Below, piece by piece: positions 32,495 to 45,586 of a DNA stretch of 64,000 nucleotides; positions within the stretch are counted from its first letter, which is position 1, and the number at the start of each line of letters is the position of its first letter. The translations under genes were made by a program, and so were the position numbers. The notes below the pieces were generated by a model. It saw only the letters and a list, made by a program, of their open reading frames with translations. It made no database searches and was not told the DNA's origin. Source of the DNA: Candidatus Hodarchaeota archaeon (GTDB taxonomy: Archaea > Asgardarchaeota > Heimdallarchaeia > Hodarchaeales > Hodarchaeaceae); the NCBI GenBank assembly GCA_016840035.1, contig JAEOTC010000111.1, positions 1-64,000 of the forward strand, given 5' to 3'.

Positions 32495-35419
32495 CTATGA
32501 ACAGTTCACGCAACGAGCAACGACTTCTTCATTCTTAATTTTGACCTTCACTCGTCCACAGGTATCACAAACTTCTGTTCCACACTTCTTACAGACTGAT
32601 AACAGCTCTGGAGCAAAAGATTTTTTACATCCTTGACATTGTTTGGGAGTATGTTCAGGACAATAAGTTGCTTCAGTATTAGGATCAAATGCGCTGCATT
32701 CCCCGCATAAACTCTGTTCACAAACCTTACATACTTCAGAATGGTCAAGACAAGCAGTTTTTCCACATTTTTGGCAAAATGTGATGTGTTCACTACAAAA
32801 GAGTTTCAAGCAGGTTGTACATACAAAAGTGGGAGGAGAAATTTCAACAGCCAATAATGATTGATAGTAATTCTCAGTGCTTATCTGAGGACCGCATCCT
32901 TCACACATAAGTTCTGCATTACCATTATAGAGATTAAGATTCAAATGGAACTGATTAACAGTATCTTGATCACTTTGGTTTAGTTTGATTGAAAGAGGTA
33001 TTGATAAACGTGGAACCCAATAAACTGATTTTTCAATAATAGAAACATCTGCTTTTCCAGGTCGATAAAGATCAGGTGGTACTCCTTGGCTTTTAAGAAC
33101 CTCAATAGATTTATGAAAAGCCTCATAATTTTCCTGTTTTTCTTTAAATAATGCTTGCCGCTTTTTCTCATTGTTGGCGATTTGTTTTCTAAGTTCTTTC
33201 ACTCGATCTTCATGTCTCATCTGTTTATTAGAGGTAGAATCAATGGATCTTTCGATGGCTCTTATTGAACGTCCCTCTGCGGCACGTGCCTTCCTTTCAG
33301 CCTCTAGATTTTCAAGTCTCGAAAGAGTATCATCAAGCTTCTGATTCTCAGTTTGGAGTTTCTCCTCTAATCCACTAATTTGTGTGGATAATTTGGATAA
33401 CTCTTTTCCAACTTTCTTCCCAGCAAGTTTTGAAATCTCATTTCTCTCGAATTCTCTTATGCGTTCCTGATAGATAGATTCCGCTTCAGGAAACGGATTT
33501 TGTGTATAGTACCAAATTAAGTTCTCAGGTAGTTTAGTAATTACCTCTTTATCGAAATCAAGGAATTTATATCCAGTGAGGGGCTGAATTGCTAAATCCT
33601 TGGCAGGGAGGGAAGAAGCATGAATCCCTTCAATAGTAGTAGAATTCCAATCGATCTTTCGCAGATCAAATGTTCGTGACATTTCCTCCTTTATCTGAAC
33701 TGGAAATTGTAGTTGTCCTTCTTTAATAGTTCTTTTGATGTCTATCAAAGTTTTTGTAAAGTACAGTGGAGAGTAGAAAATATTATAGGCTCCAAACTCG
33801 AGATTAATTCCATCCTGTTCTGGATTACCTCTGAGGCTCAACCTCTCCATGATTACTGGGATGTACTCTTCATTTTCGGGCTTGATCTTAGGTTCAAGAA
33901 ATCTTTCGGTAATTTTCCCCATAGCAGGCTTCTTAGCTTTGACTGAAACTGCAGAAATAACTGTATCCTTTTTCATTTCTGGAGTTGGTTTCTTTTCTTC
34001 AGGTTGTACCTTTTTGGGTTTTGGGGGTTTAAGTGTAAGAGCAGATATTTCCGAATTCGTTAATGGTCCTTTATGTAGACTTAGTAACCACCGTGTTTGA
34101 AGCATATTAACTCCATATCTGGGATTATAAGCAATGAAATTCCCAGGTTTCAGTGCTCTAATTTTACTCATTAATGATCTAAATTCCTCTTCAGTTCCAC
34201 CACCACCTTCAAAGACAGGTTTTAGTGCACCTTGGACTTTAGCGATGTCTTGATTGGTTGCCAATCTACCCAAAACCCAAGTAGCGATATTTGATAACCC
34301 ACGATAATCTAAATCTCCTGGATTTTGAGTTGCTAGTACACATCCCAACCCTGCTGCTCTTGCCTGTTTTAACAAGATTAAAAGCGCTGTTTTTGACGGA
34401 GGACTCAGAGATCCAGCAGGCATGAATCCATATAACTCATCAAAGTACATGATGGCGCGTAAACGACTTGTACCTCCTTTTGACCAGGCCCACCTTTGAA
34501 CTTCCCCTAAAATTTCAGCAACAAAAGTATTTTTTTCGTCTGAATCAGTAATCTTACGTAAGTCAAAAACAATTATAGGTGTTTTCTTCTCTTTGGTTGC
34601 TAAACCAATAAGCTTATCAAAATCAAGCTCTACACCTGGAACTGCACGGACCATCAAAGCATTAATATTACGAGCTAATTCTTGACGTTTAGTAGTTGAG
34701 ATGAATTTATCAACAGAAAGAGAACCCACTTTTTTAAATGGGGGGTCTTGTATTCGTTCTATTAGAAGGTCTAAACCAACGGTATTTTGCTTTTCGTTCT
34801 CCCAAACATGTCGAATAATGTTATTTAGATAGATAACACGATTGTCTGTCGATGCTGATGTTCCAATTCCAACTCTTGATAGTAACAATTGTATTTTGAG
34901 ATCTAACGCGCTTAAAACCGCATCAGGCGATTCTTCCATCATCTTTGAATAATTCTTGGGCTTTTCAAAGTGTGGAGTAAGAGAAATCTGGACTCCAGAG
35001 GAATTTTTTGGAGTAATTAATACTGTAGCCACTTTATCTGAATACTCTGCCTCTGCGGAAAGGTAATCATCACCAAAAGATTCTTCAAGTTTTTCCTCAT
35101 ATAAATTCACCCAATCTTCAGCTATTTCCTCTGGATCTCCACCGCCACGATCGTCTGCCTCCACTTTTGCATGAATAAGTAATTTATCTTTCGAAAAATC
35201 CCCAAAACCAATCCCTAAAGCACCAATATCTCCTTTAGGATCAATAGCAATTACAGGGATATTTGATCTGACTGCTTCTTCAACTATTGACTTGCACACA
35301 ACTGTTTTCCCTGAACCACTTGCCCCTAATACCGCAGCATGTGTTAAAAAGGTTGTAGAAGGTAATTCAAATCTCTCTCCCTCGCTTAGTTTTCCAAGAA
35401 AAAACTTCGGATCAGCCAT
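32495..35419 (-). CDS. HerA/FtsK-superfamily ATPase (DUF87/DUF853-like) with coiled coil and Cys-rich zinc-finger tail
   Basis: THAAVLGASGSGKT, IDPKGD, YFDE, LLKQARAAG, ATQNPGDLD; C-terminal CxxC repeats. Confidence 0.85.
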   Translation of the reverse strand: MADPKFFLGKLSEGERFELPSTTFLTHAAVLGASGSGKTVVCKSIVEEAVRSNIPVIAIDPKGDIGALGIGFGDFSKDKLLIHAKVEADDRGGGDPEEIAEDWVNLYEEKLEESFGDDYLSAEAEYSDKVATVLITPKNSSGVQISLTPHFEKPKNYSKMMEESPDAVLSALDLKIQLLLSRVGIGTSASTDNRVIYLNNIIRHVWENEKQNTVGLDLLIERIQDPPFKKVGSLSVDKFISTTKRQELARNINALMVRAVPGVELDFDKLIGLATKEKKTPIIVFDLRKITDSDEKNTFVAEILGEVQRWAWSKGGTSRLRAIMYFDELYGFMPAGSLSPPSKTALLILLKQARAAGLGCVLATQNPGDLDYRGLSNIATWVLGRLATNQDIAKVQGALKPVFEGGGGTEEEFRSLMSKIRALKPGNFIAYNPRYGVNMLQTRWLLSLHKGPLTNSEISALTLKPPKPKKVQPEEKKPTPEMKKDTVISAVSVKAKKPAMGKITERFLEPKIKPENEEYIPVIMERLSLRGNPEQDGINLEFGAYNIFYSPLYFTKTLIDIKRTIKEGQLQFPVQIKEEMSRTFDLRKIDWNSTTIEGIHASSLPAKDLAIQPLTGYKFLDFDKEVITKLPENLIWYYTQNPFPEAESIYQERIREFERNEISKLAGKKVGKELSKLSTQISGLEEKLQTENQKLDDTLSRLENLEAERKARAAEGRSIRAIERSIDSTSNKQMRHEDRVKELRKQIANNEKKRQALFKEKQENYEAFHKSIEVLKSQGVPPDLYRPGKADVSIIEKSVYWVPRLSIPLSIKLNQSDQDTVNQFHLNLNLYNGNAELMCEGCGPQISTENYYQSLLAVEISPPTFVCTTCLKLFCSEHITFCQKCGKTACLDHSEVCKVCEQSLCGECSAFDPNTEATYCPEHTPKQCQGCKKSFAPELLSVCKKCGTEVCDTCGRVKVKIKNEEVVARCVNCS

Positions 35420-35550
35420 TTTCCTTTACCACATTATTGTATTTGATGAAAATGAATTAAATTAATAAATGAATCCTTTAGTTCACGGAATATATTAAAC
35501 TAGTCAATTGCAAAAATACCAAGCATTTTCTATTATTTTGGAGGTTGACC

Positions 35551-36576
35551 ATGTCTTCAGCAAAATTTCCTATAATTACCTTAGAAGGATCTCCAGAAGA
35601 GATAGGTATACAACACGGAGAAATTTTGAAAAATAAAATTCATTCTACAGTTACCTGGTATAAAAAGGTCATATCAAAAGAAGAAAAACAGATATTAACG
35701 CTAGTGGAAATTTTTAAATTAACAATCGAGAATTTTGATCCCACTTACGCCTCTGAAATCGAAGCCATTGCGACTGGGGCTGATATAAATTCTAACTGGA
35801 TCTATATGCTAAATTCACGTTCTGAAATCATGAATATCTTTCAAAATGAGTGTACTGCGGCATTTTTTAAGTCGTCAGCAATTTTAGGTCAGAACTGGGA
35901 TTGGGCCGAAGATCTCGAAAATCTTGCCGTGATCATGAAAATTAAGAAACAAGATGACAATAAACCTGACATACTCATGATGACGGAACCAGGCATTATT
36001 GGAAAGATTGGATTTAATTCAAATGGATTGGGAGTATGTCTAAATTTTCTTAATTCCGGAAAATTACCACGAGGTGTTCCAATACATATCCTTCTAAGAA
36101 AAGTATTGGAATTATCGAGTATTAACCAAGTTGGAAGATCTATTGGACCTTTTATGAGTGGAAAATCTGCAAATATTTTGATTGGAGAAAAGTCTGGAGA
36201 ATATATCGATATCGAATTTGCTAATGATGAGCATTATTATCCGAACACAACTTCAGATGCTTTTATTCACACAAATCATTATTTGATGAACAATGCTTTA
36301 AACAGTGATACAGAGAAATTAGCCAGTTCTTTCAGCAGGTACAATAAAGCCTTGAACATTATTAAGAATAATCCCTCTAAAACAGTAGAGGATATGAAAG
36401 GAATATTATTGGATCGCACGAACAAAGCTCTCCCTATCTGTCGCCCCTATGTAGATAATCCTGATATTGGGACAGTTGGTACAATATGTACTATAATCAT
36501 GGACCTGAAAAACGGAAAAATGCACATCACAAAAGGTAGTCCCCTGAATACTCCTTTTTCTTCTGTTGAACTATAA
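35551..36576 (+). CDS. Peptidase C45 family Ntn-hydrolase (isopenicillin-N acyltransferase-like)
   Basis: GIQHG, NECT autocleavage site, GQNWDW, GFNSNG, HTNHY. Confidence 0.88.
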   Translation: MSSAKFPIITLEGSPEEIGIQHGEILKNKIHSTVTWYKKVISKEEKQILTLVEIFKLTIENFDPTYASEIEAIATGADINSNWIYMLNSRSEIMNIFQNECTAAFFKSSAILGQNWDWAEDLENLAVIMKIKKQDDNKPDILMMTEPGIIGKIGFNSNGLGVCLNFLNSGKLPRGVPIHILLRKVLELSSINQVGRSIGPFMSGKSANILIGEKSGEYIDIEFANDEHYYPNTTSDAFIHTNHYLMNNALNSDTEKLASSFSRYNKALNIIKNNPSKTVEDMKGILLDRTNKALPICRPYVDNPDIGTVGTICTIIMDLKNGKMHITKGSPLNTPFSSVEL

Positions 36577-36655
36577 AGCGAGAATTATCTCTCCTTTACC
36601 ACATTGGTTTCTATTTAAAGGACCCTTTTTATCCATTTTTTAAGGTGTTACTCAT

Positions 36656-37696
36656 ATGACTGGATATTCTATCAAGGAATTTGATCCCCCAAACGTTGAA
36701 GATGATCAATTTTGGGATAATTTCTATTCTTTCTATACAAAATTTGTCAAGGACATACATCCTAACGATCCTCTTACTCCTAAACCACGAATAGTAAAAT
36801 CATTGAAAGATCCTCATCCAGACTATCACATCAACCATTGGTTGGTATATACTTCCGATAAGGAAATCGTTGGTTGGGCAGATAATTATATTTCAAAGGA
36901 AACTCATCCTGCATACGATACAAACAAACATGTGGCAGGTTGTGATACAGTTATATTAAAAGAACATCGTCATAACGGATTAGGGACACAACTCTTCCGA
37001 TACCACTTGAAAATCGTAAAAAAGTATAATCGTACAATAATCCAAGCTGGAACCTCTGAGGAATCAGGGCATAATTTCTTAAGGAAATTTGGTGGGAAAG
37101 AAGCAATTCAAGGTTCAGAGAATCGTTTGCAGATGAATGAGGTAGATTGGTCACTTATGCAGCAGTGGATAGATGATGGCCCAGAAAGAGCAAAAGAGGT
37201 GAATCTTGAACGATTCGTTGATGTTTCCGATTCTGATATTGAGGAATATTGTGTAATCTATACTGAAACCATGAATCAACAACCCTTCGGAGAGCTTGAA
37301 GGGAGAGTAAAGGAAACACCCGATTCACGAAGACAGAGTGAGGAGAGACATCGTAAAAGAGGAGGAAAATGGACAACTCTGATTTCAAGAGAGAAAAATG
37401 GAAGGATCAGTGGTTTAACAGAGGTTTTTTATTACCCAGATAAACCTTCAATGCTTTATCAAAATTTAACTGGAGTAAAAGAAGAATATCGAGGTAAGGG
37501 ACTGGGAAAATGGCTTAAAGCAACAATGCTCAAATGGATAAGTGAAGAATACCCAGATGTTAAAACAATTGTCACTGGTAATGCCACTACTAATGCACCC
37601 ATGCTTTCAATTAACCAGAGAATGGGATTTAAAGAATATAAGTCAGGATCGGAATATAAATTTCAGGTTGAAGAGCTTGAAAAGCTACTCGATTAA
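36656..37696 (+). CDS. Tandem GNAT acetyltransferase
   Basis: EHRHNGLGT; TGVKEEYRGKGLGKWLK; NAPMLSINQRMGF. Confidence 0.88.
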   Translation: MTGYSIKEFDPPNVEDDQFWDNFYSFYTKFVKDIHPNDPLTPKPRIVKSLKDPHPDYHINHWLVYTSDKEIVGWADNYISKETHPAYDTNKHVAGCDTVILKEHRHNGLGTQLFRYHLKIVKKYNRTIIQAGTSEESGHNFLRKFGGKEAIQGSENRLQMNEVDWSLMQQWIDDGPERAKEVNLERFVDVSDSDIEEYCVIYTETMNQQPFGELEGRVKETPDSRRQSEERHRKRGGKWTTLISREKNGRISGLTEVFYYPDKPSMLYQNLTGVKEEYRGKGLGKWLKATMLKWISEEYPDVKTIVTGNATTNAPMLSINQRMGFKEYKSGSEYKFQVEELEKLLD

Positions 37697-37948: not shown

Positions 37949-38533
37949 GTGGTAAATGTTGGCATTTTAGGAGATATGAACTGCGGGAAAACATCAGTAT
38001 TTGTACGATTTATGAATTCATTAGCTGCCTCAAATGAGAAAATTATTGCTGGTTCTCCTGGAGGACCAGAAATGTATACTACTCAGACTGTAGATTTTAT
38101 TAGATTCACTCATAAGGGATTTATTCATGTCTTATACGGCACTGGAGGACACACAACACCTATCACTGATTATTACCGTGTTTACGTTTTAAGAAATGCC
38201 AACCGATTCCTTTGCATGTTTGATTTGTCGATTGAATTAGAACCTCAACTAGCTTTCTACAAGAACCTTGAGATTCCAACGAAGCAAGTAACAATCTTCC
38301 TGAACAAATATGATCTCGCACAAGAGAACTATGCTGAATATAAAGAGAAAGTAGAAGATTTTTTCATTAACGACCAGAAAAAACTGATCAAAGAAATTCT
38401 CCCTACAGTCGCGATAAAAGTCGAGGAAGGGAAATTCAAAAAAGAAACAGAAAATTGTCTGAAAGGAATCCTTGATTTGTGTGAATTTGATAAAGACGCC
38501 TCTGCATTCGATGTTTGGAATGGTCAAGGATAA
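37949..38533 (+). CDS. Atypical small GTPase (Ras-like/MglA-like)
   Basis: G1 GDMNCGKT, G2-like TTQTVDF, G3 position YGTGGH, G4 NKYD. Confidence 0.75.
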   Translation: MVNVGILGDMNCGKTSVFVRFMNSLAASNEKIIAGSPGGPEMYTTQTVDFIRFTHKGFIHVLYGTGGHTTPITDYYRVYVLRNANRFLCMFDLSIELEPQLAFYKNLEIPTKQVTIFLNKYDLAQENYAEYKEKVEDFFINDQKKLIKEILPTVAIKVEEGKFKKETENCLKGILDLCEFDKDASAFDVWNGQG

Positions 38534-38556
38534 GAATTAAAAAAAAGGTAGGAATA

Positions 38557-39462
38557 ATGGAATCTTCTGATCCTTTTGCTCAACTGGTTGAAACATTATC
38601 AGTAATAGAGCATCAGAATCGAATTTTATGCCTGTTGGCGGTGTATTTGGGTCAAAAAGCAGATCAGAATACAATTCAAGGTATTACTGATATTCTTTCA
38701 TCTCTTTTAGGGAAAGATGAGCAATTTACTACAGCGAAAACCCGAGGTCTGATCACTTCATTAGTGAATGGAGGAATCTTAGAACGGGAACGTGAGAAAG
38801 TAATAAGCTCTACGAAAGTTTCCTTCCATTCTATTAGTCCTCTTGGGTATATAGTCCTGCTATATGTCCTACAAACCTATATTATTAAGATTGACCCTGC
38901 TTCTATTAATTGGGATACCACTCGTTTTCAAGACTACGCCGATTCAGAAGAAAAAATGCTCTACTATACCATAGATGCATTACTTATTCAAGAGCCTAAA
39001 ATCAACCGAATTCTTACTTCCCTACGAAGTGGAAAGGATCCCAAGAAAATAAGGCTATCGAAACCACTAAATATTCCTTTAGAGAAACTATTTTCAGGAA
39101 AAACAGGGAATACAGTATTTAAAATTATGGAGGAATTGATCTGGGATTACTTGCATTCTAACACTGGATTAAGTAAATCCACACTCGATCAAACATCAGA
39201 TTCCTCAATAAGTAGTCCTTTGAAAAAACTTTCCACTTTTTTGATGGTAGAAGAAAATTGGGGCAAGGAAAGACGTTTTAGACTGTCAATTCACGGGATA
39301 TTTCTTTTACCTGTATTTGCTTTGCTTATAAAGCATTTTTCTGTGGATAAATCAATATTCCCATCATTAAAATTATCTCGCTTAGAAAAGGATGAGAATT
39401 ATTGGATTGCCCTTACAAAGTTAGGAAATTCATTCTTTAAAACAGTATACAGAATATCTTAA
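38557..39462 (+). CDS. Tandem winged helix-turn-helix protein
   Basis: Two wHTH-like units ending LVNGGILE...HSISPLG and LKKLSTFL...FRLSIHG; start placed at ATG 38557. Confidence 0.55.
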   Translation: MESSDPFAQLVETLSVIEHQNRILCLLAVYLGQKADQNTIQGITDILSSLLGKDEQFTTAKTRGLITSLVNGGILEREREKVISSTKVSFHSISPLGYIVLLYVLQTYIIKIDPASINWDTTRFQDYADSEEKMLYYTIDALLIQEPKINRILTSLRSGKDPKKIRLSKPLNIPLEKLFSGKTGNTVFKIMEELIWDYLHSNTGLSKSTLDQTSDSSISSPLKKLSTFLMVEENWGKERRFRLSIHGIFLLPVFALLIKHFSVDKSIFPSLKLSRLEKDENYWIALTKLGNSFFKTVYRIS

Positions 39463-39542
39463 CGCTATTTTTCTCTACCATTGCGTAAAGTTAAAAACGC
39501 AATACTTCTTAGAGTTCCGCCTAGCTTATTGAGGTTATATCA

Positions 39543-40940
39543 GTGCTGAAGATTTCTGATGAAGCAGGAAATCTACATTATCTCCCTCTTGTAGATATTC
39601 ATACTCACATAGGAAGGGTGAAAATAGCAACCACAAAGGGTAGTTCTCAACGAATAAACCAACCTCAAGACATTACCAACCTATACCAGAAATTACAATA
39701 TGAAATTACCTCACGGATTAGTCAGAACCAAGATAAGTATCCTATTAACATTCCTGATGCTCAGGAATGTGTAGAACCCCTTCTTCCTATTGTAAACACA
39801 ATATTAACCCATCAATCAGCAAAATCAAGAGCTTTCTTGGTAGATGTGATAGTTACATTCCCATTTAATGATATATTTCACTTAAAAACCTCCCCCAAAT
39901 TTGTAAAAAGCAATCGATATGTACGTTATCAAGTGAATACTTTCGATAACACCTTTAGATTTCTTCCCTTCTGCCGAGTAGATCCTACCGATTCTGATGC
40001 TGTAAATGAGATTCAGAGTTCTATCACTCAGGGAATGTATGGCTTGAAACTCCATCCACTGTCTCAAGGATGGATTGACAGAATTAAAACTGCAGAGACT
40101 ATGAATGTATTGAAAACTGCTGGAAATCTGAACATTCCAGTAATTTTCGATGTACCCAACAAGGGTGTGGCTCTTGATATTACAACCATCACACAAGAGG
40201 CGCGTCAAGAATCAGAAAATCCTGTCAAAGTAATACTAGGACATACAGGATTCGATTATTCTTCCTCAGAGATATTTGATTGTCTGTCTCAGGAGGGGAT
40301 GTATGCAGAGACTTCTGGTATGAGAGGAAAGGATGTTGAGATTTTTTTTAATAATGTCATATCGGTCCCTGATTGGGAAAATAAACTTTTATTTGGCACG
40401 GATCACAATTATTTTAGTGTTCTACAGGCAACAGATGTCATAACATTTCTAATTTCAAACAAGTTTCAAATAATGTTGTTAGAGAATGATATTGAAGCAA
40501 AACCACTAGAAATTGCATTTAAAATATTAGGAGGCAATGCTTTAGAGATTATCCCAACTGCATGGGATCCTATAACAGAAAAAACCCCTCAATTAAAATT
40601 TAAAGTTTTGAAAGACGTTTTCATACAATTTCTAAAGAAATACATAACTTCGGAGGGAAACTATCTGCGGGTTGATCAAGGCTTCGATGAATCCAGAAAA
40701 GAGGTAGTTCAAATCATCACTTTTGGAACTAGTAATACAAAATTCTCTTTTATTATATTTGAAACATCCAATCTACGAGAAATATTATTACAATCTATTC
40801 ATCCAGCTATTCGAAAAGTAAATTATAGTGAGCAAGCAATATTTCCCGTGCTTTCAACTTTAAAATCATTAAAGAGAGCAAAAAAACTTTCCCTAGAGAA
40901 ATTGCAGGCAACAGTGATTAAAATTTTGTCACAAGAGTGA
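39543..40940 (+). CDS. Amidohydrolase-family metallo-hydrolase (Amidohydro_2-like) with extra C-terminal domain
   Basis: DIHTH, GLKLHP, LGHTG, ETSG, LFGTD, ILGGNA. Confidence 0.85.
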   Translation: MLKISDEAGNLHYLPLVDIHTHIGRVKIATTKGSSQRINQPQDITNLYQKLQYEITSRISQNQDKYPINIPDAQECVEPLLPIVNTILTHQSAKSRAFLVDVIVTFPFNDIFHLKTSPKFVKSNRYVRYQVNTFDNTFRFLPFCRVDPTDSDAVNEIQSSITQGMYGLKLHPLSQGWIDRIKTAETMNVLKTAGNLNIPVIFDVPNKGVALDITTITQEARQESENPVKVILGHTGFDYSSSEIFDCLSQEGMYAETSGMRGKDVEIFFNNVISVPDWENKLLFGTDHNYFSVLQATDVITFLISNKFQIMLLENDIEAKPLEIAFKILGGNALEIIPTAWDPITEKTPQLKFKVLKDVFIQFLKKYITSEGNYLRVDQGFDESRKEVVQIITFGTSNTKFSFIIFETSNLREILLQSIHPAIRKVNYSEQAIFPVLSTLKSLKRAKKLSLEKLQATVIKILSQE

Positions 40941-43900
40941 ACATAATGGAATTAAAAGACTACATATTAGAGACACAATTATATTTTTCCCATGGGATAG
41001 AAGTTGAAAATCATTTAGTGAACGAAAGCACAGGGGAAGTTCTAGTCGGAAATGAACTGATTGAGACTTGGGAACAAATGTTTGCTGGTGCAGTGAAATA
41101 CTTAGAAAAGTTGAAAAAAGCAAAACACACACCAAAAGCCATAGCTAAGAAGATCGTGAAAATTGAGGTAACGGAGGAATTAAAAAGAGAGAAAAGACTC
41201 AATTTTATCTTCGTTCACTATCGATTAGGAAAAAAGACAATTCGAGTCAATGTCTTTGGTCCTGATCCAAATATATCCCAGATCACTTGGTTATTAGAAC
41301 TTGTTACCCCTCCATGTGAGTATTTGGAAGAAATTGCCTTCTGGATTGATTCTCTTTACGCTGCCGCTGCTCATGGCCTTTCAAAAGTAAAAAATAAATG
41401 TACTCTGTTACCTTTAGGATTAAATCCCATGGAAAAACGAGTACGAAGTGGTTTGACTTGTGGCGAACATCATCACATAGGTATTCCCTCCTTTTTCCGT
41501 GCACCCGTTTATAACATGCTGAGAAACTATATTCCCCACCTAATTGCGTTAAGTTCAACTTCTCCGTTTCTCGACCAGAAACCAAGTAGTAAAATAATTT
41601 TCAAGGAGAAAGATGGGAAAAAACAAGTGATTAGCAGAGGAATTCATTCGTATCGATTAGCAAACAATACTGGTCAAATGGGACCAAACATCCCTCAGTA
41701 CTTGCCTATTATTGATGATATGACATCTCGAGAAGACTTTGCCAACTCGATACGCAAAGTTCCCCCTGAGGATCGGATGATAGATCTTTTTCCATATACG
41801 GACTATTCGACAATAGAGTTAAGATTTTTCGATGCCCAGCCTTATAAAGAAAACCGCTTAGCTATGGTTTTACTTATCCAAGCATTAGCTCAGAAAACAA
41901 AAAAGTTAATTAAAGATAAATTACCTGTTCCAACTGTATCTTCAAAGAGTTTATATGAGAATCGCCGAAAATCAATTCAATTTGGTCTTTTAGCTCAATT
42001 TACAAGAGATGAAACCCTAACAGGCGAGTTTGCATGGTATTACAATTATGATATTGAGAATGGAGTAAAAGCCTCAAAACTATTACATTCCGTTCTAGCC
42101 ATGCTTATATATATTGAAGATGAAATACTGGATCTTGGTGAGAAATATGTCGACCAGGTACTATTACCAGTCTTGGGTTCAAAGAAATTTGCCCCTCCAT
42201 TCACGGTATGTGAATATCTTCTTTCTCTTTACACAGAAAAAAAAGAAAATGCAGCTGAACTACTCAAAGAATTATACTATGAGGAAAAGCTTTCATACAC
42301 TCCCGAAGTAGCAGGTGATTTCTCATCATTCCTTGTTGAAAATCCTCCTGACTCTTTCACAGAGGTCGACACTCAGAAAGCGAACTTAAGTCAGCTTTTG
42401 AAGAAAGATATTTCCACAAGAGATGTATTTGCAAGCAAGCCCAAACCAAAACCCAAAAAACGAAAAAAACCGAAACCAGTAGTTCCCAAAGAAGAACCAG
42501 TCGAAGTAACGAAGAAAAAGAAACCAGAGGTAGTACGAGCCAAAAAAGAACCTAAGAAAAAGGTTCCTAGTAAAAAACCAAAGGTTGTAGAGCCTACTAA
42601 ACCTAAAAAGCCTGTTAAAAAAGTTACACCTAAGAAGGAAGTAAAAAAGAAACCTATAGATCCGAAACTTACTCCTATCAAAGAAGAACCGCAGGTTTTC
42701 TCCGCATTTGATGAAAATGAGGATCTTGAGATCTATTCTCCGATGATCGAAATTGAACCTAAGTATCAGAAAATTAATTCTAAAATTGCGAATATAATGA
42801 GAACACGCCGTCAAGAAATTGAGACAAAGCGTGTAGTCTTCTTTCGTGAACATCTGAAGGAGGAAGAGTCGTCTTTCAAACCTTTCCCAAAAAAAAGAGC
42901 AGCGATTTTTCCCGCTCTATTTTCTGGCCCTGAATTATTTGGATATATTGAACTTACATTTGGTGACATTAAGAAAGTTATGTATCAATTTCGTAATAAT
43001 CCAATTACTCTGAAATTTTATGATAACCAAACAGACAAAGAAATCTCTTCCATTAGAACTTTTATTGATATTTCTAGAATTGAAAAACGTCAAATGGTAA
43101 GAATTCCATGTTCCGTTAACCTAGGAGAATTATATGGGAAGTTACAAATCAGAGTAGAAGCCGTCACTTCCACAAATCACAGATTACTACCTGAAAACTT
43201 TACATTTAAAACAGAACGCAAAGATGACATTAGTATTTCTCCTAAAGAATTCTATATAACAAGTAACTTTGGTTCTGTAGAGTGCATTTACAAAGCGACC
43301 AATGATTCCAAGAAAGAAGAACGAGGGGAATTAACACTCATATTAGCAACACAAGCAGCAGCAACACCAATAGTCCTTTATGAGGAGAAATTTTCTCTTC
43401 AGCCTCGTGCTTCATATGAGTTGGCCAGGAGTATTGATTTATCCATTGATTACCAGCATAGTTCTTTTTATATCATTGCCCGTGTAACTACAGGGATGCT
43501 TAAGAAAAATCGATCATTTAAGAGTATACGCGTACCAGTATTACGTGAAATTGTGGTTGATTGGTCTTATGAAACAAAGGCTGGTTCTAAAAATGACCTT
43601 TGGCAAGGGGTGGAATCCAAAACACACTACTCTGTCGATTTTGTTTTTCATTTTCTTCGATCTTTACCTCCTGTAACCATAACTATTTATATAAACACGT
43701 TTCCTCAAGGAGAAACAAAGAAATTAACGAGCTTACGGTTGAAGCGGTACATAGATAAAGGGGATGAGTTTCGTGCACCAACAGTCAAATTCAAAACCCC
43801 TAAAAAATGCGGTTACTTAATATTCGATGCACAAATTCGGACAGAAAAAGGTATTCTACCAATGCATTTAATCTCCGAACCAATTGGGGTATATGCATTG

Positions 43901-43945
43901 ACTACTAAAGCCACATTCGAAGAAAGACGAAATTTAGATCTGTAA
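40937..43945 (+). CDS. Glutamate--cysteine ligase family 2 (YbdK/GCS2) carboxylate-amine ligase domain + Lys/Pro-rich linker + beta-rich C-terminal domains
   Basis: GIEVE, LELVTPPC, CGEHHHIG, LRNYIPHLIALSSTSPF, SYR, TIELRFFD; start overlaps the upstream stop (GTGA). Confidence 0.8.
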   Translation: MNIMELKDYILETQLYFSHGIEVENHLVNESTGEVLVGNELIETWEQMFAGAVKYLEKLKKAKHTPKAIAKKIVKIEVTEELKREKRLNFIFVHYRLGKKTIRVNVFGPDPNISQITWLLELVTPPCEYLEEIAFWIDSLYAAAAHGLSKVKNKCTLLPLGLNPMEKRVRSGLTCGEHHHIGIPSFFRAPVYNMLRNYIPHLIALSSTSPFLDQKPSSKIIFKEKDGKKQVISRGIHSYRLANNTGQMGPNIPQYLPIIDDMTSREDFANSIRKVPPEDRMIDLFPYTDYSTIELRFFDAQPYKENRLAMVLLIQALAQKTKKLIKDKLPVPTVSSKSLYENRRKSIQFGLLAQFTRDETLTGEFAWYYNYDIENGVKASKLLHSVLAMLIYIEDEILDLGEKYVDQVLLPVLGSKKFAPPFTVCEYLLSLYTEKKENAAELLKELYYEEKLSYTPEVAGDFSSFLVENPPDSFTEVDTQKANLSQLLKKDISTRDVFASKPKPKPKKRKKPKPVVPKEEPVEVTKKKKPEVVRAKKEPKKKVPSKKPKVVEPTKPKKPVKKVTPKKEVKKKPIDPKLTPIKEEPQVFSAFDENEDLEIYSPMIEIEPKYQKINSKIANIMRTRRQEIETKRVVFFREHLKEEESSFKPFPKKRAAIFPALFSGPELFGYIELTFGDIKKVMYQFRNNPITLKFYDNQTDKEISSIRTFIDISRIEKRQMVRIPCSVNLGELYGKLQIRVEAVTSTNHRLLPENFTFKTERKDDISISPKEFYITSNFGSVECIYKATNDSKKEERGELTLILATQAAATPIVLYEEKFSLQPRASYELARSIDLSIDYQHSSFYIIARVTTGMLKKNRSFKSIRVPVLREIVVDWSYETKAGSKNDLWQGVESKTHYSVDFVFHFLRSLPPVTITIYINTFPQGETKKLTSLRLKRYIDKGDEFRAPTVKFKTPKKCGYLIFDAQIRTEKGILPMHLISEPIGVYALTTKATFEERRNLDL

Positions 43946-44050
43946 TGAAATACCTATGAATTTGGATTGACCTTAAAGGATGTAATTTTTAAAGGACACA
44001 TCAACCTAGACTGAAACAACTCAAGATAACTATAGCAAGGAGACTTTCTC

Positions 44051-45340
44051 ATGACCAAAATTCCATTGAATGTTGTAAATGTTGGCAATATTGAGGGAAG
44101 AGCTTATCTTCATCCTCAAGACATAGAAAAATTGGAAATTAATGAATTCGATTATGTAAAAATGGTAACTGAATGGGAGGATTGGGGAGCAGTTCAGATT
44201 CTTTTATCAGATGAGGTAGAGCAGGGTACAATTGCAGTAGATGGTAGCGTACTTTCATCAGCGAATATATCGGATGGTGATGCGGTTGAAGTCGACGTAG
44301 TTACTGCTACAGCAGGTATCAAATCGATTAAGCTGGGAATCGAACCTCTTGCTGGTCAAGAAGTGGAAGAAGCGATTTTATGGATTGCTACTGAATTTGA
44401 ACAACTTTCTACCCTTTTAAAAAATCGTCCAGTGTTCAATAATCTACAAATCGGATGGGAAGATTGTCCAATAGGTAATTTAACAGTCAGATTTCTCGGT
44501 GCAGACCCTCCGATACCTGAGGAGAATATTGGAATTGTGGATCCCACTGGAAGAGAAGTGGAGATTAATATAATTCCATTTACTGAAATGAGTTTTAACG
44601 CCGTATTGGTTCTTGATGTCTCAGGAAGCATGTCCAAGAAAGATATGAAAGTACAGAACATTAGTGGTGCATTAGAAGGTTTAAAAAAGGGATTAGATGA
44701 GTCAAATGAACTGAATCAGTTTATAGAAAAATTCCAAGATGGAAAGAAAGTTTCTAGAGTTGATGCAGCTGCGATGGCAATAATGTTATTCATGTCATTG
44801 AAGATTGCTAAAGGATGGGGAGAACAAATCCAATTGTTAACTTTTTCCGGTGAAGTGGAAAAATTTGCTCTCGGAGAGGCAAACGTAATCTCATGTGTTG
44901 GAGAAACGAAGAAAGCAGGAATCGAAAGCATCATAGACCATGTTGTTCAGAAAACTGCTGAAAGTACTGGTTTAACATTCCTAAGTGGTGCTATAGATCA
45001 AGCATATAAGAGCATCGCTAGTTTTGATGATAATCCCACTATCCAGAAGAAGAATCCAACCATGATTATTGTTCTTACTGATGGTAATCCAAATAAAGGA
45101 AATGGGCTAGGAGTCAATCCCATTCCAGTTGTCAAACAGCATGTTGAACAATTACCTGAAGTCGTGCTGTATGCAATTGGATTAGGAGAAGCTGATCGGT
45201 TAATGCTTCGCAAAATCGGTGAAATGGGTCGTGGGGGAAGCCTGATGGCGGACGACTTGGAAACACTGATCGATTTCTATGATTCACTTGCTCAGAATTT
45301 CCAGATGGTCGTAAAAATGAAGAAGGAGCCCGAAGACTAA
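44051..45340 (+). CDS. CDC48/VAT N-domain-like region fused to a von Willebrand factor A domain
   Basis: GRAYLHPQDIEKLEINEFDYVK...GTIAVDG...ANISDGDAVEV (double-psi barrel pattern); MIDAS DVSGS, GLT, LTDG, AIGLG. Confidence 0.75.
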   Translation: MTKIPLNVVNVGNIEGRAYLHPQDIEKLEINEFDYVKMVTEWEDWGAVQILLSDEVEQGTIAVDGSVLSSANISDGDAVEVDVVTATAGIKSIKLGIEPLAGQEVEEAILWIATEFEQLSTLLKNRPVFNNLQIGWEDCPIGNLTVRFLGADPPIPEENIGIVDPTGREVEINIIPFTEMSFNAVLVLDVSGSMSKKDMKVQNISGALEGLKKGLDESNELNQFIEKFQDGKKVSRVDAAAMAIMLFMSLKIAKGWGEQIQLLTFSGEVEKFALGEANVISCVGETKKAGIESIIDHVVQKTAESTGLTFLSGAIDQAYKSIASFDDNPTIQKKNPTMIIVLTDGNPNKGNGLGVNPIPVVKQHVEQLPEVVLYAIGLGEADRLMLRKIGEMGRGGSLMADDLETLIDFYDSLAQNFQMVVKMKKEPED

Positions 45341-45586
45341 TTTTATCTTAATCCTCCCCTTTATTTTTCATTTTAATTTTCTCCCCTACGACGAAAGTTC
45401 AATTTAAACCTTTATTCATCGCAAACACTCATGATTAAGGCAAAAATCGGGACTAAAAATCTCTAAACCGTCTTTAATCTAATTAAATTCCGTAGGAAAA
45501 GGACTAGATTTTTATACTTCAATCAAGATTGCAATGTCCCCCCTTTGCGAAAGGGTTAATTTCCATATAAAATTTTAGGTGAAGAT

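Follow-up and report, generated by a model that had tools for sequence, protein, structure and literature searches.

Given that a single locus in an Asgard archaeon places a giant ligase beside a hydrolase, an adaptor-like protein, a small GTPase and a winged-helix protein, we questioned which of these genes belong together and what they might act upon. The locus lies at positions 37,949 to 45,340 of a 64,000-nucleotide stretch, hereafter the window, of contig JAEOTC010000111.1 from Candidatus Hodarchaeota archaeon (assembly GCA_016840035.1), which is contig C57 of the 4.3-Mb, 87% complete metagenome-assembled Asgard genome G000. A sequence-only reading had proposed that five co-oriented genes with gaps of 23, 80, -4 and 105 bp encode a ubiquitin- and Pup-independent modification pathway, in which a ligase serves as writer, an amidohydrolase as eraser, a protein with CDC48-N and von Willebrand factor A (vWA) domains as reader and a GTPase as switch. 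The open reading frame (ORF) coordinates give exactly these gaps, and the domain calls for all five products (GTPase, winged helix-turn-helix (wHTH), amidohydrolase, GCS2 ligase and CDC48N-vWA) hold across families, motifs and structural models. The finding is nevertheless recast as an Asgard-wide triad of ligase, hydrolase and vWA protein with lineage-specific accessories, a compact and directly testable set of three soluble proteins whose biochemical function is a prediction from sequence. No known organisms are closer to eukaryotes than the Asgard archaea, whose ubiquitin, endosomal sorting complex required for transport (ESCRT) and CDC48-type genes serve in reconstructing the origin of eukaryotic protein handling.

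The three core genes all lie on the forward strand and encode an Amidohydro_2-type TIM-barrel metal hydrolase (P0003; core gene 1, 39543..40940, 465 aa), the ligase (core gene 2, 40937..43945, 1002 aa) and the CDC48N-vWA adaptor (P0005; core gene 3, 44051..45340). The 4-bp overlap behind the proposed translational coupling of hydrolase and ligase is kept in 7/7 genus loci examined; an alternative ligase start, also ATG, lies 9 bp further in. We surveyed 151 Asgard genomes from 27 families, searching the same sample with each protein, and found ligase, vWA protein and hydrolase each in families f1, f4, f10, f11, f12, f14, f23 and f28 and in none of the 19 others. The complete triad is present in 60 genomes, 65 contain one or more of its genes and 86 lack it entirely, counts that treat kin as separate even though kin are not independent for gains and losses; the five discordant genomes are mostly fragmented assemblies. 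Co-conservation, whose absence the sequence-only reading had named as refuting evidence, is thus seen for the amidohydrolase, the ligase and the CDC48N-vWA protein and is lacking for the GTPase and the wHTH protein. Because co-conservation splits the cluster in this way, the real unit comprises three genes rather than five.

Gene order around the triad varies with lineage. The window's own genus (Hod) has the order hydrolase, ligase, vWA, and in Heimdall family f4 the hydrolase likewise precedes the ligase, with the vWA gene about 6-7 kb away. Family f14 places a short ligase before the hydrolase, its vWA gene lying 10-57 kb away or on another contig, while hydrolase and vWA genes are adjacent, with the ligase convergent, in the f10 and f23 sets shown and in Asgardarchaeia (one gene apart in f23 set A). 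Thor genomes carry the ligase and, about 6 kb on, vWA and hydrolase genes; the vWA gene precedes the ligase directly in Loki and with one gene between in Sigyn; and in Freya the ligase converges on the vWA gene, with the hydrolase about 4 kb further.

Duplications and fusions tie these genes together further. Families f12 and f23 possess two ligases, two hydrolases and three vWA genes, and each ligase adjoins its own vWA and hydrolase genes, as at 2.918-2.926 Mb and 2.376-2.383 Mb of G074:C1. Maximum-likelihood trees of the three core proteins from 14 loci, all unrooted and, for the vWA protein and hydrolase, from quick searches, have in common the splits {Hod, f4, Freya, f23A}, {f10, Asgardarchaeia}, {Thor, f28} and {f23B, f14}; this congruence indicates that the set duplicated and diverged as a unit. 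A profile search of 1.84 billion representatives returned 98 clusters at E < 1e-30, and one relative, P0271 (962 aa), is a complete CDC48N-vWA protein fused to a ligase domain, the vWA-family profile covering residues 3-410 (E 3e-50) and the ligase domain spanning 451-891. The ligase domain also stands at the C-terminal end of proteins of 2200-3800 aa, among them P0252 (2769 aa, L061:6197-14506), which has full-length vWA-family members on both sides (E 1e-64 and 1e-68). Together, the fusion and the co-duplication support a direct working partnership of vWA protein and ligase, and we are highly confident that ligase, hydrolase and vWA protein form a functional unit. The five-gene system as first proposed is thus partly supported: shared families, linkage, co-duplication and fusion speak for the triad, but not for the GTPase, which recurs in the triad-less families f9 and f22, or for the wHTH protein, which was found only in the genus.

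P0271 (L060:10001-12889) lies at a contig end amid DNA-modification and defence-like genes (N6_N4 methylases, Mom, QueC/QueF/TGT, TIR, SLATT), and P0252 carries HHH_5 and pol-lambda-finger motifs upstream of its C-terminal ligase domain. The motifs of P0252, like the Lys/Pro-rich linker of the window ligase, hint at a possible association with nucleic acid.

What chemistry might the ligase perform? Its first part (40937..42346, residues 1-470) is a GCS2/YbdK-type ATP-dependent carboxylate-amine ligase domain, which exceeds the Pfam GCS2 (PF04107) cut-off (28.4 bits against 21) and whose family profile matches YbdK (1r8g) at E 1.9e-11. Twelve Asgard-wide sequences share invariant G20-E22-E24, E121, G176/H178/H180, R196 and H201, together with SPF 209-211, R240 and TIExR 292-296; the GxExE, ExxT, GxHxH and ExR motifs are what we take to be the metal- and ATP-binding residues of the GCS2 family. 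Automatic annotation offers the name "glutamate-cysteine ligase family protein", and Asgard matches to GshA families have been counted (PMC7278568), which would favour an ordinary gamma-glutamylcysteine synthetase (GshA) engaged in low-molecular-weight thiol synthesis. We regard this as highly improbable. Scores against the NCBIfam equivalogs for GshA and YbdK fall far below their cut-offs (59.8 against 176.4 for TIGR02050, and 58.8 against 371 and 49.3 against 409 for others), so the ligase is neither a GshA nor a YbdK equivalog, and a protein of 1002 aa with a structural tail, and with partners and fusions that have no role in thiol synthesis, does not fit that function. The Pfam scan of the ligase at E <= 0.1 returned GCS2 alone, with neither the Pup-ligase family (PafA/Dop) nor the glutamine synthetase family (Gln-synt) among its matches. 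The link to PafA and Dop drawn by the sequence-only reading is consequently reduced to an analogy of fold and chemistry, the ligase itself being GCS2/YbdK-like.

Beyond the catalytic domain, a Lys/Pro-rich linker (42374..42721, about residues 480-595), in which Lys, Pro, Glu and Arg make up a fraction of 0.57-0.77 of 60-aa windows, is presumably disordered; such a charged linker occurs only in Hod and in some f4 orthologues. The non-catalytic tail (42722..43945, residues 596-1002 plus the stop codon) is modelled by AlphaFold2 (AF2) with a predicted local distance difference test score (pLDDT) of 87.7 as one long helix followed by beta-sandwich domains of Ig/MG/CARDB-like type, and structural searches (Foldseek, VIA) align it with macroglobulin MG domains, transglutaminase C-terminal barrels and CARDB at Z scores reaching 11.5. 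The modelled fold is that of a generic interaction scaffold and offers by itself no functional clue. Tail sequence differs between ligase subfamilies, and f14 ligases lack the tail. With a profile built from the Hod tail, no match was obtained in the tails of other subfamilies, and BLAST gave only weak tail links, all within subfamily groups.

The adaptor is the best conserved of the three core proteins, with 42-48% identity across classes. It combines a CDC48-N-like double-psi barrel region (about residues 1-180) with a vWA domain (about residues 181-429), and its Pfam matches are VWA, VWA_2 and CDC48_N. The VWA match (E 1.1e-8) exceeds its cut-off (35.9 bits against 23.8), and the metal ion-dependent adhesion site (MIDAS), D189-x-S191-x-S193, T309 and D344, is invariant in 16 orthologues and paralogues. 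CDC48_N (PF02359) scores 27.6 bits in P0005, under its cut-off of 35.1 (E 3.3e-6); 13/16 members of the adaptor family match it at E < 1e-3, the lowest E being 9.1e-11. A search of PDB sequences with P0005 returned only chance-level parvalbumin matches, and kinship of its N-domain to the neighbouring AMP phosphorylase was rejected on finding no similarity between them, despite a weak TIGR03327 match. The adaptor C-termini are acidic in Hod, f4 and Freya and basic in Loki and type B, a mixture that leaves a uniform model in which the adaptor tail serves as the tag unsupported. In f14 the vWA gene is enlarged (721 aa) and has an additional CDC48_N-like region at its N-terminal end; an actin homologue is encoded nearby (L040:17349-18551).

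The catalytic part of the hydrolase covers about residues 1-340, followed by a variable C-terminal stretch of about 120 aa. Amidohydro_2 (PF04909) scores 13.9 bits in the window hydrolase, below the 26.4 cut-off, and 39.6 bits, above it, in the orthologue at L021. Sixteen orthologues across Asgard share invariant D18, H20, H22, K169, H171, D203, H234, E256 and D287, among them the metal-ligand pattern HxH...K/H...H...D (HxH, K169/H171, H234 and D287). Searching PDB sequences gave no match for the window hydrolase itself and, for its family profile, only 3nur at E 0.5.

This architecture recalls FluG and SCO6961-SCO6962, which couple or fuse an amide ligase of the glutamine synthetase (GS) superfamily with a TIM-barrel amidohydrolase that has HxH/K/H/H/D metal ligands (PMC6478659). 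We therefore weighed a FluG-like small-molecule pathway in which the ligase would make a gamma-glutamyl or other amide metabolite, the hydrolase would supply or recycle the substrate and the vWA protein would scaffold or regulate them; this is the main rival to protein modification, and a serious one, which we judge rather unlikely. In its favour, a glutamylated metabolite has been proposed as the substrate of known fused or adjacent pairs of amidohydrolase and GS-like gamma-glutamyl ligase (PMC6478659), the closest solved relative of our ligase is YbdK, and hydrolase and ligase genes are coupled in the window and adjacent in f4 and f14. What such a pathway leaves unexplained is the co-evolution, co-duplication and fusion of a MIDAS-vWA/CDC48N protein with the ligase, as well as the beta-sandwich tail and the ubiquitin-like (UBL) proteins encoded at the locus L063 described below. 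The ligases also differ in type: that of FluG is GS type I, without a vWA partner, beta-sandwich tail or UBL neighbours, and ours is of GCS2 type. Should the product nonetheless prove to be a small molecule, the triad would represent an unusual metabolic enzyme pair locked to a vWA adaptor.

Evidence bearing on a protein substrate comes from relatives of the adaptor. Paralogues that are 36-38% identical over its full length carry a C-terminal ubiquitin domain that ends in ...STAG, STAGG or STAGK, in some cases with a short extension. In Hodarchaeota (L052:10001-11764) and Lokiarchaeota (L059:2225-3964), such ubiquitin-fused adaptors are encoded beside ThiF (E1), UQ_con (E2), JAB and a RING-like gene, which places the adaptor family in a bona fide protein-conjugation context; the whole fused adaptor may be conjugated in the manner of ubiquitin. 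Further proteins joining CDC48N-vWA to a C-terminal ubiquitin domain are P0211, P0214 and P0217. Each ubiquitin-fused adaptor gene follows one for a coiled-coil protein, and the motif PPKYQI.SKTP is common to two of these coiled-coil proteins. The window's own genome also encodes two tandem stand-alone ubiquitin-like proteins (G000:C3:2011-2928; L057, L058), which share 41-43% identity with the ubiquitin domain carried by the fused paralogue P0210.

A second line of evidence is the compact cluster at L063:311-6085, which comprises genes for a hydrolase, two UBL proteins, a 740-aa membrane-anchored ligase and a vWA protein, the UBL genes lying between those for hydrolase and ligase. Its three core proteins match our family profiles at E 1e-49, 3e-94 and 7e-76. 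One UBL protein aligns through its residues 10-75 with the ubiquitin of 189 PDB sequences, scoring about 16 bits for each ubiquitin unit, and the other gives a weak match to the Rad23 UBL domain; one of the two ends in ...KGGVE, and the GC content of the contig is 43%. Neither the window nor any other triad locus yielded a UBL gene to phmmer searches with the L063 UBL proteins and the P0210 ubiquitin domain. A further pointer towards a protein substrate is the EAP30/Vps36-type protein encoded upstream of type-B ligases, described below.

Collectively, the adaptor domains, the ligase tail, the ubiquitin-fused paralogues and the UBL-containing locus incline us, by a modest margin over an even call, towards a protein as the substrate. 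The putative roles of writer, eraser and reader that the sequence-only reading had assigned gain indirect support from the ubiquitin-fused adaptor paralogues beside E1, E2 and JAB and from the UBL proteins of L063. Because of its GCS2 fold, the ligase is expected to proceed through an acyl-phosphate followed by attack of an amine: it would activate a carboxylate and join it to a protein amine, for example as an isopeptide bond or by amino-acid addition. The vWA protein could serve the ligase as subunit or substrate adaptor, the MIDAS metal gripping a carboxylate of a partner protein and the CDC48N-like domain a polypeptide segment, and the hydrolase would then remove or process the amide made by the ligase, reversal being the more conjectural part. 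An adaptor-assisted protein-modifying ligase with a reversing or processing hydrolase is thus our preferred account of the three-gene Asgard module, held with a confidence that is evenly balanced; if true, it would add a new tagging chemistry to Asgard archaea, analogous to pupylation and separate from it. A bolder form of this account, which we put forward tentatively as a possibility, makes the triad a second, E1/E2-independent Asgard protein-conjugation system, in which ligase and adaptor attach an amide mark or a UBL protein and the hydrolase removes it, the adaptor family having also been recruited as a ubiquitin fusion into an E1/E2/JAB operon. Two tagging chemistries would then be linked in the lineage closest to eukaryotes.

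Several observations weigh against protein modification and need to be set beside these arguments. Characterised GCS2 members (YbdK, GshA and EgtA) act on small molecules. The designation of the amidohydrolase as an eraser is drawn from its family name, and Amidohydro_2 includes non-amidase enzymes, decarboxylases and lactonases among them. The ubiquitin fusions sit on paralogues and not on the window adaptor, the triad locus with UBL genes is represented by one contig, and a conserved small tag gene is absent from the window and from most triad loci. No Pup-like gene was seen either, the window's inter-gene gaps being too short for one, in an analysis that included no search aimed at Pup-like genes. 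Moreover, the hydrolase is not in view at the Loki, Sigyn and giant-ligase loci, the phyletic counts carry the dependence among kin noted above, and amidohydrolases paired with GS-superfamily ligases are already familiar from small-molecule pathways (FluG, SCO6961/6962; PMC6478659).

Among described systems, the one that our preferred account may most closely resemble in its working is pupylation, through its use of an ATP-dependent carboxylate-amine ligase and an opposing hydrolytic enzyme. In actinobacteria, PafA, of GS/GCS fold, makes isopeptide bonds on proteins and Dop opposes it, and the pathway is tied to unfoldase and proteasome adaptors. The triad differs in its GCS2/YbdK-type ligase, in an opposing enzyme that is a TIM-barrel metal hydrolase rather than a homologue of the ligase, in its CDC48N-vWA third partner and in its Asgard lineage. 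The YbdK and other GCS2 ligases (PDB 1r8g, 1tt4) share the catalytic fold and motifs of the triad ligase, but are stand-alone enzymes of about 370 aa, whereas the triad ligase joins a catalytic domain of about 460 aa to a linker and a 400-aa tail. Compared at the level of domain families only, the adaptor shares its vWA domain with Rpn10, and its CDC48-N-like region resembles the double-psi barrel of Ufd1 and Cdc48, all substrate or adaptor modules; unlike Rpn10 and Ufd1-Npl4/Cdc48, it has both domains in one chain without a ubiquitin-interacting motif or an AAA ring, and it is partnered by a ligase and a hydrolase instead of the proteasome. TTLL glutamylases and RimK add amino acids to proteins in an ATP-dependent manner, and CCP deglutamylases provide a metallohydrolase eraser; with ATP-grasp and M14 peptidase folds unlike those of the triad, they are functional analogues only. 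The arrangement had not been recognised as described when first noted, and we likewise found no description of the triad in the literature covered, the 2009 amidoligase survey (Iyer et al.) lying outside that coverage. The triad may accordingly be an undescribed protein-modification system. It is notable in that it is widespread in Asgard, its three genes co-evolve, a ligase and hydrolase are paired with a CDC48-N/vWA adaptor, and a sister branch of that adaptor is fused to ubiquitin.

The two remaining genes of the cluster encode an atypical small GTPase (P0001; 37949..38533, forward strand, 194 aa) and a tandem winged-helix protein (P0002; 38557..39462, forward strand, 301 aa), both neighbours of the triad at the level of the genus. 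The GTPase matches GTP_EFTU (E 6.4e-6) and small_GTP (9e-7), both under curated cut-offs; it has the G1 motif GDMNCGKT (GxxxxGKT) and the G4 motif NKYD (NKxD), and its G3 region reads GTGGH, without the Asp of DxxG. Orthologues with 46-50% identity occur in families f9 and f22, both of which lack the triad, and there (L050:8121-10208, L051:8884-10077) they follow an unrelated, conserved partner of about 210 aa that is 38% identical between the two families. At L050, a gene for a JAB/MPN protein comes next after these two.

The winged-helix protein starts at an ATG within the ORF listed from a TTG at 38515 and matched no sequence family. Its AF2 model (pLDDT 76, good in 1/5 models) comprises two winged-helix units, of which unit 1 (residues 1-115) has structural matches at Z 9-11 and unit 2 (residues 181-245) at Z 8-9.3 with a root-mean-square deviation of 1.5-1.7 A. 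ESM Atlas gave only sub-threshold leads for it (archaeal regulators, DUF2250). With this query the protein was found in 6/7 genus genomes and 0/143 other Asgard genomes.

We asked whether all five genes could nonetheless constitute one system with the GTPase as its switch and the wHTH protein integral to it, and consider this quite unlikely. In the seven genus loci the order GTPase, wHTH, hydrolase, ligase, vWA, with a HerA-like gene on the opposite strand ahead of it, is kept wherever it lies on the contig, and small GTPases or winged-helix proteins, unrelated to those of the window, lie near the triad elsewhere (Freya/f23, f4 and type B). Flanking HerA, Toprim and ADH genes are, however, as syntenic in the genus as the five genes themselves, so synteny at this level proves little, and proximity of a GTPase is weak evidence because Asgard genomes hold many small GTPases. 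Against a single system stand also the restriction of the wHTH protein to the genus, the GTPase orthologues without a triad in f9 and f22, and the lack of any detected sequence relation linking the Freya or type-B proteins to the GTPase or wHTH protein of Hod: neither P0001 nor P0002 gave a BLAST match to the Freya GTPase or to the 338-aa protein, and hhalign of the P0002 family against the Freya winged-helix protein, the L049 EAP30 region and the f9 GTPase partner gave nothing significant. T-rich tracts follow both the wHTH gene (39463-39542) and the vWA gene (45341-45400), and an A/T-rich box, a possible promoter, lies ahead of the hydrolase gene within 39463-39542. Such signals hint that GTPase-wHTH and hydrolase-ligase(-vWA) might be transcribed separately. 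Taken together, the GTPase is probably a non-obligatory component of the system, and it and the tandem winged-helix protein, as local additions in the genus, may regulate the module from outside its conserved core.

Other lineages have accessories of their own. Directly upstream of the ligase in Freya and f23 (L030:7561-9243, L044:12080-14472) are genes for a winged-helix protein, a Ras-type GTPase and a weakly longin-like protein of 340 aa, a trio that resembles a GTPase-regulator set, and in f4 a Ras gene lies between hydrolase and vWA genes. Type-B ligases have, two genes upstream, a protein of about 800 aa (L049:462-2879, L047:10560-12944), which at L049 ends in EAP30/Vps36 (ESCRT-II-like) winged helices (E 3e-19); the L047 protein is homologous over the EAP30 part, but Pfam reports for it no EAP30 and only a weak beta-sandwich (CarboxypepD_reg-like) match. 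A conserved protein of about 220-260 aa is encoded between the ~800-aa protein and the type-B ligase. Family f14 has a MIT+TPR protein beside the hydrolase (L040:6204-7232). The recurrence of GTPase-, winged-helix-, longin-, EAP30- and MIT-type accessory genes near the triad is suggestive only.

Upstream of the cluster, and divergent from it, the reverse strand encodes a 974-aa HerA/DUF87-like ATPase (32495-35419) that is in view in 6/7 genus loci; it was not seen near the triad outside the genus among the triad loci compared. PADLOC defence models returned no meaningful match. Between the HerA and GTPase genes, the forward strand (35545-37696) carries genes for AAT (an Ntn-type acyltransferase/hydrolase) and a double-GNAT protein, an insertion peculiar to the window genome among the genus loci, with short remnants in L019.

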